A stretch of 33,159 nucleotides of DNA from a virus (taxonomy: Duplodnaviria; Caudoviricetes). A program made the translations under genes and the position numbers. The notes below the pieces were generated by a model. It saw nothing but the letters and a program-made list of their open reading frames with translations, did not search any database and was not told the origin of the DNA. The DNA lies in IMG/VR virus record IMGVR_UViG_3300032320_000349, positions 1 to 33,159 of that record. One strand, given 5' to 3'. Shown one piece after another: positions 449-11,665 of this stretch. The first letter of the stretch is position 1. Each line of letters begins with the position of its first letter.

Positions 449-490
449 AACCCCCGTCCTGGTTTTCCCCATACCAGAGCGGGGGTTTTT
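449..490 (+). terminator. Intrinsic terminator between convergent arms
   Basis: AACCCCCG(449-456)...CGGGGGTT(480-487) stem with an inner CTGG/CCAG helix, followed by a T-tract. Confidence 0.8.
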
Positions 491-5951: not shown

Positions 5952-6719
5952 CTATTCGAATGGAGTAGCAAGACCTTTCTGGTCTCGCCATTTTCTTACT
6001 TTCATTGCAAACTCTACACCTTTCCAGCCTTCTTTGATATCTACAAAGACTAACTTGCAGTTACCTGTTCCTGCTGGCAGATGTATGATGATTGCTTTTT
6101 CTTTATTGATATCGCCCCATGTTCCACGGGTTGCGGTATCAGGGAAATACGGCAACCCGTTGGCATAGATTGCCAACTGCATTGCAATGTTATGAGGATG
6201 GTCTATCCGACCTGTCTTCAAATCTGCAATGAACCGTTCTCCCTTGTACTCAACAACTCTATCTGGAGTCCCTGCTATCTTATACTTGTCTAAGACAGAG
6301 AACTGTTCGATGAATAGTTTGCTGAGAACACTAGTTACTTGACCATATGCTTGGATGTCTGGCATATATTGTTCTGGTACTGGACCTAACTCTTGTCCTA
6401 AATCTAATCGTTCTGTAAATGCATGGATAGCAGTACCAATATTGGCTGCTTTACTTGCACCTGCTACTTCCATTGCTTCTTCAATGTAACCATTGACTGC
6501 TAACTTATCGTCACCTGCTGCACTGATTGCTAATAATAAATCAGGGCGTGTTGTTAATCCCATTGCAGCCATTCGCATTTTCCATGCAACTAATGCAGAT
6601 GCATCATCAAGACTGTTGGCTATTGTTGTTGCACGTGTATATGCAACTGGTGTTTTACTTTTTGGTGGCACAACCATTGGTCTGCCGTATCTATCTCTAT
6701 CAATACTTACTGCTGTCAT
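5952..6719 (-). CDS. Cas4/RecB-like PD-(D/E)XK exonuclease
   Basis: GTAIH, IAGTPDR, IADLKTG and MQLAIYA motifs. Confidence 0.85.
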   Translation of the reverse strand: MTAVSIDRDRYGRPMVVPPKSKTPVAYTRATTIANSLDDASALVAWKMRMAAMGLTTRPDLLLAISAAGDDKLAVNGYIEEAMEVAGASKAANIGTAIHAFTERLDLGQELGPVPEQYMPDIQAYGQVTSVLSKLFIEQFSVLDKYKIAGTPDRVVEYKGERFIADLKTGRIDHPHNIAMQLAIYANGLPYFPDTATRGTWGDINKEKAIIIHLPAGTGNCKLVFVDIKEGWKGVEFAMKVRKWRDQKGLATPFE

Positions 6720-6740
6720 AGCATTCCTGTCTCCTGTTAG

Positions 6741-6787
6741 TGAAGCAGGCTAAGAATAAGGAGACCACAAAATCCTAGCCTGCTTCA
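6741..6787 (-). promoter_or_regulatory. 5'-leader hairpin with anti-Shine-Dalgarno loop
   Basis: Perfect 12-bp stem (6741-6752/6776-6787). The loop on the minus strand contains GGUCUCCUUAU. Confidence 0.55.
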
Positions 6788-6795
6788 GTGTTAAC

Positions 6796-6804
6796 AGTAT
6801 AGCA
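6796..6804 (-). promoter_or_regulatory. Extended -10 promoter (TGcTATACT) for the replication operon
   Basis: The minus strand reads TGC-TATACT. The predicted start (~6789) is at the base of the leader hairpin. Confidence 0.5.
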
Positions 6805-6930
6805 GACCCCTCAATGTCTGCACTGTTAGTGCCCCGTGTTCGCAAGTAGCGGGGCAACCCACTTAGGTGACTGTATAAATAGAAATCCAGAAAGATTTAT
6901 ACAGTTGCGAGCCTCTCCGTCCCGAGAGAA

Positions 6931-7356
6931 TTACTCCGCGATTATGTCACTTACTTCTACATCATCAACCCAGATTTCTCCATCAACTGATTGGAGTTCT
7001 ACATTGATATCATCACGAATCATATCTTCTACTTCGTCTTTGCTAGCAGCCTCAATGCCTGAGACATTGACATAAATACGCACTGTTGCAGACCAGGTAC
7101 GCTTAAGTTCATCTGCTCCAATAACACGGAGCATGTCATTAATTTCTTCAACAGATGTAGTAATTTCCTGGTCTCCAGGTGAGTACTGACTATTAAAGAA
7201 TTCATATACTGTTCCGCGTATGTCAATTACTTGACGACTAGATTGTTGACTGCGTTCTTTTGCAGTTGTACAATCTTGAATGAAACGCTGTACTTCTGTT
7301 TCTGTATATGTAATTACTTCATTTGTTTCTGGGTTTGTGATACTGATTGTATTCAC
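6931..7356 (-). CDS. Hypothetical acidic early protein
   Basis: GTG start with AAGGAGAC RBS and a GTGA overlap. Confidence 0.65.
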   Translation of the reverse strand: MNTISITNPETNEVITYTETEVQRFIQDCTTAKERSQQSSRQVIDIRGTVYEFFNSQYSPGDQEITTSVEEINDMLRVIGADELKRTWSATVRIYVNVSGIEAASKDEVEDMIRDDINVELQSVDGEIWVDDVEVSDIIAE

Positions 7357-7631
7357 TGTTCGTCTCCTTCTGAATATAGCCATGCTTCTAGGTGGTGTCC
7401 TTTCACTATGGCGTGGGCTGGCGCGGAACTCTGCCCACGCCACTCAACACCATGTGGTAGTTGAATTAGTTTATCATACTCTTCTTCATCGTACGCATAG
7501 ATGGCATCTATACATGGTTGTACCATGCTAAGTGGTACTGGTGGGTAATGATTACTAGTTAGATGGATAGCCATCTGTTGTTGGATATTGATTGTTGCTT
7601 CAGTTAAATCTCTTGCCATGTTGTATCCCAT
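7353..7631 (-). CDS. Hypothetical phage protein (HLTSNHYPP motif)
   Basis: Coupled to both neighbours; His-rich motifs HLxxNHYPP and HHLEAW. Confidence 0.65.
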   Translation of the reverse strand: MGYNMARDLTEATINIQQQMAIHLTSNHYPPVPLSMVQPCIDAIYAYDEEEYDKLIQLPHGVEWRGQSSAPAHAIVKGHHLEAWLYSEGDEQ

Positions 7632-8613: not shown

Positions 8614-9114
8614 TTAGATTCCAATCTCTGCTTTAACTTTGTCATGCAGTTCATTGCGCATGTTTTCGAATGCGCCTGCAGGCCAGCCTGCTTGATACAC
8701 ACGGTCAAGTAACTTAGCCAGTGAGTAGGACGGATTAGATTGATATGCCACACCAAGATACTTATTTGCTTCAGTGCTATCTCCGATTGAATAATAAAGA
8801 GATGAAATAATAGAAGCAATAGGTGCAGCATATTCAATAGGAGTTAGTTTGGCTACGAATGCAGCCCAACTACCTACGAATTGAATGTCTCTTTCTTTTG
8901 GCATGCCTAGTACTAGGTCACGCACTTGTACTTCATTGTTAATTGCAACAGTAACCTGTGCAATTTCTTGTGATGTAGGTTCAATGCCATCTACGAAGCG
9001 GTCAATCTGGTCGTAGATACTAAGGGCAATGGACTTGTTTTGGTCTGGGTCATTGACATCATACTCATTTTCAAAGAGTGCTATTTGTGTTAGCACATCT
9101 GCTTTGTCTGTCAT
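8614..9114 (-). CDS. DUF4192-like actinobacterial protein (C-terminal domain)
   Basis: VRDLVLG...AAPIASI..LYYSIGD..EA...L..A....PSYSLAKLL....AGWP; AAGGAGAC RBS. Confidence 0.55.
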   Translation of the reverse strand: MTDKADVLTQIALFENEYDVNDPDQNKSIALSIYDQIDRFVDGIEPTSQEIAQVTVAINNEVQVRDLVLGMPKERDIQFVGSWAAFVAKLTPIEYAAPIASIISSLYYSIGDSTEANKYLGVAYQSNPSYSLAKLLDRVYQAGWPAGAFENMRNELHDKVKAEIGI

Positions 9115-9125
9115 TGTTTGTCTCC

Positions 9126-9548
9126 TTATAGGTACTTGGCTACTGAGTTGTATGTAGAAGTAGATACTACTTCTTCATCTGTCATCTTGAGAATACGGAT
9201 AGCATTCCCAATCTCTTCCTTTTTATCACGGTACTCATGAAGGTTGATTCTTTCATAGTTTCTTTCTGGTTCTACAGGAAGATTGAATTGTTCTACTTTA
9301 ATATCGTAATCAATATTAAGTGTATTGTTCCATGAACGATAGTTAGTTCTAATGTTTTCTGCTTTGCTAAAATTAGCAATTGCATAATCTGTTATCTCTT
9401 TACGCCATTGTTCATAGGATTCATTGAATTTCTTTTCGTTTACTTCTTGTGAAGTATAGTCAAGTTCCAACTTGTTTAGTGCTTGCTCAAGTGCAGCAAT
9501 AATTTTTGCTGTTGGTATCTTGACATTGATTGGTTTACTTTTTGCCAT
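9126..9548 (-). CDS. Hypothetical early protein
   Basis: 140 aa; AAGGAG RBS preceded by a pseudoknot. Confidence 0.7.
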   Translation of the reverse strand: MAKSKPINVKIPTAKIIAALEQALNKLELDYTSQEVNEKKFNESYEQWRKEITDYAIANFSKAENIRTNYRSWNNTLNIDYDIKVEQFNLPVEPERNYERINLHEYRDKKEEIGNAIRILKMTDEEVVSTSTYNSVAKYL

Positions 9549-9572
9549 GCTTTCTCCTTTAGTTGTAGTTAA

Positions 9573-9601
9573 TGAGCAGTTTTACCTCATGCTCAGGAGG
9601 T
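9573..9601 (-). promoter_or_regulatory. Compact H-type RNA pseudoknot in a 5' UTR
   Basis: Minus strand ACCUC-C-UGAGCA-U-GAGGU-AAAAC-UGCUCA: S1 5 bp and S2 6 bp, all Watson-Crick. Confidence 0.6.
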
Positions 9602-9731
9602 TTCGCCACTTATTTATACTGGCTGTACGGTCGCCAGTTTGACATGAACTACACTGCATCTCGGTCGTAATCTTACGCTGGTTCACCATGTCACATCTAC
9701 CTAGGGGACCTACGGAACACAAGGTAGAAAC

Positions 9732-10145
9732 TTAATACCATCCATGATTGCGCCAATGTGCCCAAGCAATTGATGGTTTCTTATAGCGATGCTCGATATA
9801 CTCCAGCCCCCGCTCAATTTGACGCGGGGCTGGGGTTCCAGGTTTTGTATTAAGAACCTGTGCTATACCGTATGCACTGGAGTCGGGGTTATCTGCATAG
9901 TGATTCCATGCCGACTCCTTACCCCACAATTTCAAGAGGGCTCGGTATTCCGATGTGTTCCATTGGAATCGTTCCTCTACTAATAACTTGGCGTACGCTT
10001 TGGATAATTTCTTTGTCCACTTGGCGTCTGGGTTCTCGCACTTCACCTTGTCTGCCATTGCTAATGCATAGGCTGGACTGTTGGGTAGTAAGAGAGACCA
10101 GAAGGTTAGTGACCAACTCATAACAAGCGCGAATATTTTCTTCAT
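9732..10145 (-). CDS. Secreted lytic transglycosylase (SLT/lysozyme-like)
   Basis: Signal-peptide-like N-terminus; LWGKESAWN..A.NP.SSAYGIAQ...QIERGLEYIEHRY...GWY. Confidence 0.85.
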   Translation of the reverse strand: MKKIFALVMSWSLTFWSLLLPNSPAYALAMADKVKCENPDAKWTKKLSKAYAKLLVEERFQWNTSEYRALLKLWGKESAWNHYADNPDSSAYGIAQVLNTKPGTPAPRQIERGLEYIEHRYKKPSIAWAHWRNHGWY

Positions 10146-10983: not shown

Positions 10984-11123
10984 TGGTCTACCTTTCTGGT
11001 CTGTTCTTCAAAGTAAATTGCAAAACAATCTGAGCATAGTTCAACTGGCATTTGAAAGTAATTACTCAACGCTATTTCTCTTTGGCGCAATTGTGTATAG
11101 CATTTATTACATCTTGCTTTCAT
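10974..11123 (-). CDS. 49-aa Zn-ribbon protein
   Basis: MKARCNKC...LCSDCF...QCI*; AGGAGAC RBS. Confidence 0.6.
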   Translation of the reverse strand: MKARCNKCYTQLRQREIALSNYFQMPVELCSDCFAIYFEEQTRKVDQCI

Positions 11124-11187
11124 TAGTGTTGGTCTCCTAACTATGGTTCGAGTCGTAGTTCTCTGTCCTTGTACGGTTGGGCTTGTG

Positions 11188-11229
11188 AAAAAAAGTAAGG
11201 CAGGTGAGAGCCGAAGCCCCCACCTGCCT
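11188..11229 (-). terminator. Intrinsic terminator with cUUCGg tetraloop
   Basis: Minus strand AGGCAGGUGGGGGC-UUCG-GCUCUCACCUGCCU, then UAC and U7. Confidence 0.85.
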
Positions 11230-11234
11230 ATCTT

Positions 11235-11600
11235 TTATGCTTCTACTGGTTTATCTGTGTGAAGTTTTTTGATAACTATTTGATTCCAAGGTGCTCTGCG
11301 TTGAGAGTTATCCACACCCTGGCGAGTATCAAAGCGTGTATTACCTTCAGCAATCACCTTGATTACTTTGGTAATACCTGTTTCATCTGTAGGTAGTTCG
11401 AGCAACATCTGCTTTACATCATCATCGAATGCTACGAACGGCGTAGTCCAGACACATTTGCCATCTGAATTGCGACGAGAGAGATTACCTTTGATGAAGT
11501 TTTGTCCATCACGAGTTGTTGAACTTACTACCTTGATGTTCTTAAGTGTACCTTTGACAACCACTAGGTTATCAACTTCATTGATGTTTACTGTATCCAT
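11235..11600 (-). CDS. OB-fold / SSB-like protein
   Basis: Start MDTVNINE with AAGGAGAC. Beta-rich pattern N.VVVKGTL...PFVAF...IKVIAEG...QIVI. Confidence 0.5.
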   Translation of the reverse strand: MDTVNINEVDNLVVVKGTLKNIKVVSSTTRDGQNFIKGNLSRRNSDGKCVWTTPFVAFDDDVKQMLLELPTDETGITKVIKVIAEGNTRFDTRQGVDNSQRRAPWNQIVIKKLHTDKPVEA

Positions 11601-11665
11601 TACTGTCTCCTTTATATAGTTTAGTTTACTTTCAGCAACCCGTTGGGCACAGGTGCCCACGGGTA

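Follow-up and report, generated by a model that had tools for sequence, protein, structure and literature searches.

A hairpin that heads the replication genes of a virus, here termed hairpin B, was observed to be a conserved RNA structure of the minus strand. The promoter motif, the stem, the strand, the loop and a coupled change of the loop and the early-gene ribosome-binding sites (RBSs) across clades are all borne out in the comparisons described below. Judging from these sequences, the loop probably pairs in trans with a tag shared by early RBSs and thereby blocks their translation.

The whole stretch of DNA that was analysed, hereafter the window, is a virus record of 33,159 bases with 43% GC, from which some late genes may be missing. 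On its minus strand, small unknown genes occupy 12.1-6.9 kb and are followed, after 6.9 kb, by genes for an exonuclease, a helicase, a resolvase, a primase, a sigma factor and WhiB; the plus strand carries terminase, portal and capsid genes (PHROG scan). The labels early, middle and late are assigned from gene content only. WhiB marks actinophages, and the contig is hence read as that of an actinophage. The window terminase is 60% identical to records OX376640 and OX376641, and cultured 'Ca. Planktophila' phages are of the same size class, with the same GC and marker genes, in the available part of their description (PMC10202952). A long conserved hairpin lies where the two gene blocks converge (449-487, plus strand; also in genomes G002, G003, G004, G006 and G008); it is terminator-like on both sides, and its C-rich loop might complement GGGG-type late RBSs.

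A hairpin with an anti-RBS loop at the head of the replication block

The following features lie at the start of the replication block.

5952..6719, minus strand: Cas4-like exonuclease, first gene of the replication block (PHROG 466, E 7.7e-62; hits annotated as Cas4-family)
6796..6804, minus strand: extended −10 motif TGCTATACT, from the sequence; predicted transcription start at about 6789-6787
6741..6787, minus strand: hairpin B, 15-bp stem with one G-U pair and a 17-nt U-rich loop, from the fold and from covariation in relatives
6758..6765, minus strand: loop seed GUCUCCUU, complement of AAGGAGAC, covarying with early RBSs
6729..6735, minus strand: own AGGAGAC, 5 nt past the stem, with the exonuclease start 9 nt further

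The initial annotation had placed an extended −10 directly before a perfect 12-bp hairpin whose loop matches the RBS of its own downstream gene. The −10 was found where it had been claimed (6804-6796), and so was the matching AGGAGAC, which begins 5 nt past the stem at 6735-6729. The hairpin is likewise present with a longer stem, in which the 12 Watson-Crick pairs are joined by a G-U and two more pairs to give 15 bp (6787-6773 with 6755-6741), and the 11 nt given as the loop turned out to be only the 3′ part of a 17-nt loop (6772-6756). Folding of 6700-6810 alone gave z = −2.16 (7 of 200 shuffles). The seed resembles the 16S anti-SD, so that any SD pairs partly with it.

No terminator was found 3′ of hairpin B, and a free sRNA in excess over its targets is for this reason putative only. 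A strong intrinsic terminator lies inside the early block, on the minus strand at 11198-11229, 3′ of the gene starting at 11600. An Rfam search of the whole window up to E 1 returned one sub-threshold match away from the hairpin and none near it, and the same search of eight related loci returned no match. Among 12 RNA runs screened, none had half of the search words; four of them were examined, as contigs only, and no contig spanned 6716-6817.

Predicted target RBSs in the window

Four early RBSs on the minus strand are the predicted targets of the loop.

7362..7369, minus strand: predicted target RBS of the gene starting at 7356, 8-nt match, duplex −15.0 kcal/mol
9120..9129, minus strand: predicted target RBS of the gene starting at 9114, 10-nt match, duplex −17.0 kcal/mol
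11130..11138, minus strand: predicted target RBS of the gene starting at 11123, 9-nt match, duplex −16.5 kcal/mol
11605..11612, minus strand: predicted target RBS of the gene starting at 11600, 8-nt match, duplex −13.2 kcal/mol

These matches had been proposed before. Those at 7356, 9114 and 11600 are exact and of the proposed lengths (8, 10 and 8 nt), and that at 11123 is present and extends over 9 nt instead of the 8 given. The own site of the hairpin B leader forms a weaker duplex (−12.0) than any of the tagged early sites, whose four values range from −13.2 to −17.0. Mean duplex energies were −11.6 for 15 early starts, −7.7 for 15 middle starts and −8.2 for 26 late starts. Six of the 15 early genes reach −12 kcal/mol and the remaining nine are weaker, so that about half of the early genes are tagged; one late gene (29702) scores −15.5.

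The number of AGGAGAC words in the window is unremarkable (6 against a mean of 3.7; 14 of 100 shuffles reach 6). All five minus-strand copies lie at gene starts. No copy precedes a plus-strand gene, consistent with the earlier remark that the late genes go without it, and the sole plus-strand copy is the loop itself. Unlike the count or the fold alone, the placement of AGGAGAC, together with conservation and covariation in relatives, goes beyond chance.

Conservation and folded strand of hairpin B

Related loci were collected by exonuclease searches of IMG/VR, metagenomes and GTDB, some contigs recurring between scans; one locus, in a GTDB bin of an unrelated genus, was left out for host assignment. 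Among the 238 placed loci, 231 had sufficient upstream DNA, and hairpin B with TCTCC in its loop was observed in 127 of these. It is lacking in the other 104, five near-complete genomes included, and is therefore dispensable. Neither a motif scan nor model R1 detected a second anti-RBS hairpin in the hairpin-less genomes; distant forms could escape R1, since it missed two distant phages described below, G001 and E7.

Among the 50 distinct hairpins, stem length ranges from 10 to 18 bp and loop length from 12 to 20 nt. The motif TGnTAnnnT stands 4-13 nt 5′ of the stem in all 50, against a background of 1.9% per 26-nt window. The detector demanded TCTCC, so the constancy of these five bases is by construction; the upstream listings inspected contained no hairpin with another loop at the same place, except in G002 (UUCUCC). 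Two-sided changes were seen at 12 of 12 stem pairs in 49 aligned copies, in which one clade is off by one column, and none of 500 shuffles reached the covariation score. The seed persists despite complete turnover of the stem and shifts along with unlinked RBSs in several lineages; what is conserved is a stem that presents an unpaired seed.

At stem positions 2-9, the oppositions comprise 373 Watson-Crick, 23 G-U, 1 C-A and 3 G-A. The excess of G-U over C-A (23 against 1) indicates that the minus strand is the folded strand. It bears on the possibility that the tag is a protein-binding site, with the hairpin acting either as a decoy in plus-strand RNA, as had been suggested initially, or as a DNA operator reversed behind the promoter. 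The start-associated sequences (SAS) of cluster K phages, to which we return below, persist without a loop, so such tags can have a second reader, and the available text on the SAS leaves RNA or protein open (PMC3203893). However, both the G-U bias and the minus-strand promoter motif (50 of 50 hairpins) disfavour the plus-strand decoy, a DNA operator would not need a covarying stem, and hairpin-less lineages lose the tag. We consider a protein site improbable and pairing between the minus-strand loop and early RBSs the better reading.

Coupled change of the loop and early RBSs

We counted as sites every AGGAGA ahead of an ORF start (ORFs of at least 30 aa) up to 5.6 kb upstream; a variant of the count based on a gene caller gave the same pattern. 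In loci with GUCUCC loops (G loops), C follows AGGAGA in 141 of 199 distinct early sites. With AUCUCC loops (A loops), the following base is T in 53 of 59 early sites and C in one. C follows in just 4 of 51 early sites of hairpin-less loci, and in 9 of 42 sites of the genes downstream in G-loop loci. On the late strand, AGGAGA starts with C were found in 0 of 9 cases in four hairpin genomes versus 4 of 11 in five hairpin-less genomes, a count in which G004 and G010 are covered to base 39,500 only. At the next positions, the top RBS triplet fits the loop for the UUG, CUG and UAG loops and ranks second for CUA; the fit at +2/+3 is poor elsewhere, as GUG and UCG loops fail and four triplets tie for first place in the UGG class, to which the window belongs.

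These site counts are related by descent and not independent. On a tree of 41 of the 138 exonucleases, AGGAGAC sites occur in 25 of 25 G-loop rows, in 0 of 8 A-loop rows (support 97) and in 0 of 7 hairpin-less rows, which form two separate lineages. In the UAG-loop clade (support 99), CTA ranks first among the triplets in 13 of 17 rows, and it does so in 0 of the 24 rows outside this clade. The tree corresponds to about four to five independent events in the family. The seed is hence complementary to unlinked RBSs that change in a compensatory manner, which is the covariation across relatives that had been asked for when the hairpin was first noted.

The same layout in distant phages

G001 is a GC-rich record with a different exonuclease. 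The loop region of its hairpin complements AACAAGGAGAAACC, which stands in exact copies ahead of two early genes, and its own downstream RBS lacks two of the bases. In a relative of G001, L302, which model R1 found weakly (E 0.025), the loop and the early RBSs have shifted jointly to ACAGGAGA and the downstream RBS is mismatched. A G001 hairpin with a C-run loop that directly follows element A, a pseudoknot described below, matched no RBS.

The cultured Planktophila phage E7 (LanE43-AprE7, OX376640) contains GACAGGAG 11 times. Ten copies precede ATG codons, seven of them on the strand opposite to the hairpin and the replication block; the eleventh, in reverse complement, is the loop of an 18-bp hairpin that heads the replication block. 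Any pairing with the seven opposite-strand copies would therefore be in trans. E7 has a matching own RBS too. A TGn −10 is absent ahead of its hairpin, where we saw only TAnnnT hexamers within an AT-rich stretch. A very AT-rich, palindromic stretch with TA repeats lies just 5′ of the hairpin (OX376640, L398:31540-31625) and is possibly an origin or a promoter region.

In Streptomyces phage WRightOn (L399, minus strand near 37,884), eight early RBSs have GGGAGAGA, and the loop of a hairpin that follows them contains CUCUCUCC. As this loop, complementary to the GGGAGAGA tag, comes from a single cultured genome, it is a candidate only. A generic scan for RBS/loop pairs missed the positives Anaya, G001 and L302, and its lack of hits in Streptomyces phage Joe and Dulem virus 32 consequently means little.

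Early RBSs that shift with the loop between clades and in distant phages give good support to the trans-acting leader RNA proposed in the initial annotation.

Pairing of the loop with its own leader

The same annotation had also offered a switch in cis, and we compared the loop with its own RBS accordingly. The own site always offers 7-8 bp a few bases past the stem. Of the G-loop leaders, 37 of 43 keep GGAGAC, and in 39 of 43 the own site is 8-15 nt before the start, often with a nearer second SD-like word. A-loop leaders have an own RBS with the matching T in 0 of 24 cases. A cis pseudoknot in the window would require fraying, because its 5-nt linker must span 15 bp and a rough estimate from the A-form rise needs 6.

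If control were in cis only, the loop would form a pseudoknot with its own RBS, or a hairpin with it after loss of the 5′ arm, and so set exonuclease translation. The constant 7-8 bp, a fold of −10.7 kcal/mol for the loop and own RBS without the 5′ arm, and the matching own RBS of E7 agree with such a switch. It leaves unexplained, however, why distant early RBSs covary in the A-loop clade and the own RBS does not (53 of 59 versus 0 of 24), and why E7 has its matches on the opposite strand. With the own RBS unchanged in A-loop leaders, the downstream RBS departing in G001 and L302 and the linker at its limit, we regard a switch in cis alone as very improbable. Given the GGAGAC kept by G-loop leaders, some cis or auto pairing is possible in addition to pairing in trans.

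The kept own site also bears on what pairing with early RBSs would do. Instead of being repressed, early mRNAs could titrate the loop off its own RBS and so turn the replication genes on, or could be stabilised by the pairing against a 5′ exonuclease. Either outcome fits all of the covariation, and the retention and spacing of GGAGAC in G-loop leaders and the weaker duplex of the own site in the window also speak for this reading. Against this, a covered SD normally means repression, as the accessible text on 6C states (PMC6486639), the cis pseudoknot is strained, and the downstream RBS is mismatched in G001 and L302. Such outcomes seem to us unlikely, and repression of early translation in trans remains the reading we prefer.

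Neighbouring structured elements

Three further elements lie 5′ of hairpin B.

6793..6825, minus strand: hairpin C, an inverted repeat whose 3′ arm contains the −10 motif; absent in the A-loop clade
6829..6864, minus strand: element A, a covarying pseudoknot 5′ of the promoter and a separate module; of 35 matches to its pattern, 29 are distinct variants with both helices fully paired
6870..6905, minus strand: hairpin D, 11 bp; would join TCGCA at 6910-6906 and element A in a putative three-way junction

Element A also stands ahead of several different early genes and was seen in L013 and L081-L199; about 170 stretches match its pattern, some by chance. Its two downstream helices covary, and the closing helix, of only 4-5 bp, was left out of the count. 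It has no Rfam match, and this, with its topology, speaks against readings as an HDV-like or hammerhead ribozyme or a riboswitch. Flaviviral xrRNAs are described, in the portion of the report available, as three-way junctions with an L3-to-3′ pseudoknot that block RNase J1 in vitro (PMC5760640). Element A with hairpin D would share this outline, as a resemblance only; element A is possibly an RNase J roadblock. We also considered whether the loop of hairpin D targets early start codons in hairpin-less loci; its 7-11 nt matches are scattered and mostly off starts, and the idea was set aside.

A second pseudoknot-like motif, with the core CTGAG..AAACTGCTCA and a covarying 4-bp helix (20 variants), lies on the minus strand at about 9575-9602 and occurs also in L058, L146 and L262; it sits ahead of A-rich linkers and RBSs, and sometimes ahead of the exonuclease. 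It falls in a 180-nt intergenic stretch (9548-9732, minus strand) with further shared motifs, which is partly repeated 5′ of the exonuclease in L262 and has the appearance of a structured RNA module that is mobile. A 9-bp direct repeat (6831-6823 and 6742-6734) flanks the promoter and hairpins C and B, and a deletion between its copies gives the layout of the main hairpin-less clade.

In hairpin-less loci, the corresponding position ahead of the RBS is occupied by other structured modules, namely element A and the second pseudoknot. This would be expected if hairpin B were merely a 5′ stabiliser or a terminator, its loop match being a by-product of inverted duplication and of RBS homogenisation by recombination. 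The seed is retained, however, even where the stem has been replaced entirely, and in several lineages it changes together with unlinked RBSs, which makes this account hardly credible.

Proposed mechanism and relation to known systems

In the mechanism that we propose, the extended −10 would start an RNA at the foot of the hairpin B stem, which would shield the RNA 5′ end and hold the seed unpaired. As it accumulates, this RNA would form 8-10 bp with AAGGAGAC-type RBSs in competition with the 30S subunit, so that early synthesis would drop while the replication transcript becomes more abundant. The tag is absent from the RBSs of most replication and late genes, which would therefore be spared. 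The RNA that acts could be the whole mRNA leader or a processed fragment.

In Firmicutes, the pyrimidine-rich loops of RsaE/RoxS and RNAIII pair with the purine-rich RBSs of many mRNAs. Repression by a loop on RBSs without a chaperone is described for the 6C sRNA of Actinobacteria in the accessible text of that study (PMC6486639). The 6C/B11 sRNA of Mycobacterium resembles the phage leader, as far as that text goes, in opposing an unpaired pyrimidine-rich loop to the purine-rich RBSs of many mRNAs, without a chaperone and in an actinobacterial cell. It is, however, a host-encoded free sRNA with C-run loops, whereas the window has a phage mRNA leader with one UCUCC loop, its own genes as predicted targets, a seed that differs between lineages and no Rfam family match up to E 1 near the hairpin.

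The c4 antisense RNA of phages P1 and P7 is likewise a phage RNA whose loops pair in trans around an RBS and block translation, according to the available part of a review (PMC12197685). Loop-to-RBS antisense control is thus already known from 6C and c4. But c4 controls one antirepressor mRNA for immunity; here at least four dispersed early genes share the predicted target, there is no Rfam C4 match, and the PHROG scan found no antirepressor among the 54 window proteins. In its proposed outcome the leader would resemble T4 RegB as given in the accessible text (PMC3014915), with early mRNAs losing activity through a common SD motif while the programme advances. RegB, however, is a protein and cleaves GGAG, whereas base pairing would provide the recognition here; the PHROG scan identified no such nuclease. 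The phage antisense RNAs in the part of the review available act on single loci or host genes (PMC12197685). Among the titles and abstract openings covered, which include few subscription papers, none described a phage leader directed against a lineage-specific tag that many genes of the same phage carry.

Start-associated sequences of cluster K phages

SAS are 13-bp sequences at the RBSs of non-structural genes, and a single inverted copy occurs in Anaya, Adephagia, Angelica and CrimD; in the sections available, their function is given as unknown (PMC3203893). SAS are also reported in cluster EF Microbacterium phages, in the part of that paper at hand (PMC7302621). The window tag is likewise a phage-specific RBS tag. 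It is confined to non-structural genes and to one orientation, and has just one inverted copy, at a place where no gene begins. It differs in that the 13-bp consensus GGGATAGGAGCCC does not occur, the upstream regions of the window having AAGGAGAC instead, and in its length of 7-10 nt against 13. Extended SAS, 17-bp inverted repeats 5′ of about half of the tags, are a feature of cluster K. The available text of the SAS papers describes neither a function nor a hairpin.

In Anaya, the inverted SAS, which matches at 12 of 13 positions, was observed at record position 59,870. It forms the apical loop of a long hairpin that lies between genes on the coding strand and is preceded by a TAGACT hexamer. 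The hairpin region matches 150 records; of 11 examined, five keep the loop through stem changes, two have it degenerate and four lack it. In Amohnition the normal SAS is kept but the loop does not match it, and searches over the full length of TM4, Pixie and AnnaSerena, which all have SAS, showed no inverted copy in a loop. SAS thus persist without a matching loop (TM4, Pixie, Amohnition), so the loop is not needed for them and the link to cluster K is a lead. The surrounding Anaya stretch (L379:31690-31900, record about 59,700-59,900) is a conserved cluster K unit composed of a terminator, the TAGACT hexamer, an A/C-rich linker and two long hairpins; units of this type are annotated as a hypothetical gene in some cluster K records.

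If the proposed mechanism is true, hairpin B would serve phages of bacteria that abound in lakes as a stage switch made of RNA alone, where the known shut-off of early phage translation through a shared SD uses a protein (T4 RegB). The hairpin loop would supply the cluster K SAS with a defined candidate reader ('RNA or protein') that can be mutated, and cultured phage-host pairs exist. More tentatively, many actinophages may run a barcode regulon, in which early RBSs carry a lineage-specific tag, the leader of the next stage carries the anti-tag in a loop, and early translation is turned off without a protein; this would be the function of the cluster K SAS, open since 2011. Cultured phages in which such a regulon could be examined directly are Anaya and Angelica, both grown on M. 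smegmatis, and Planktophila phage E7.
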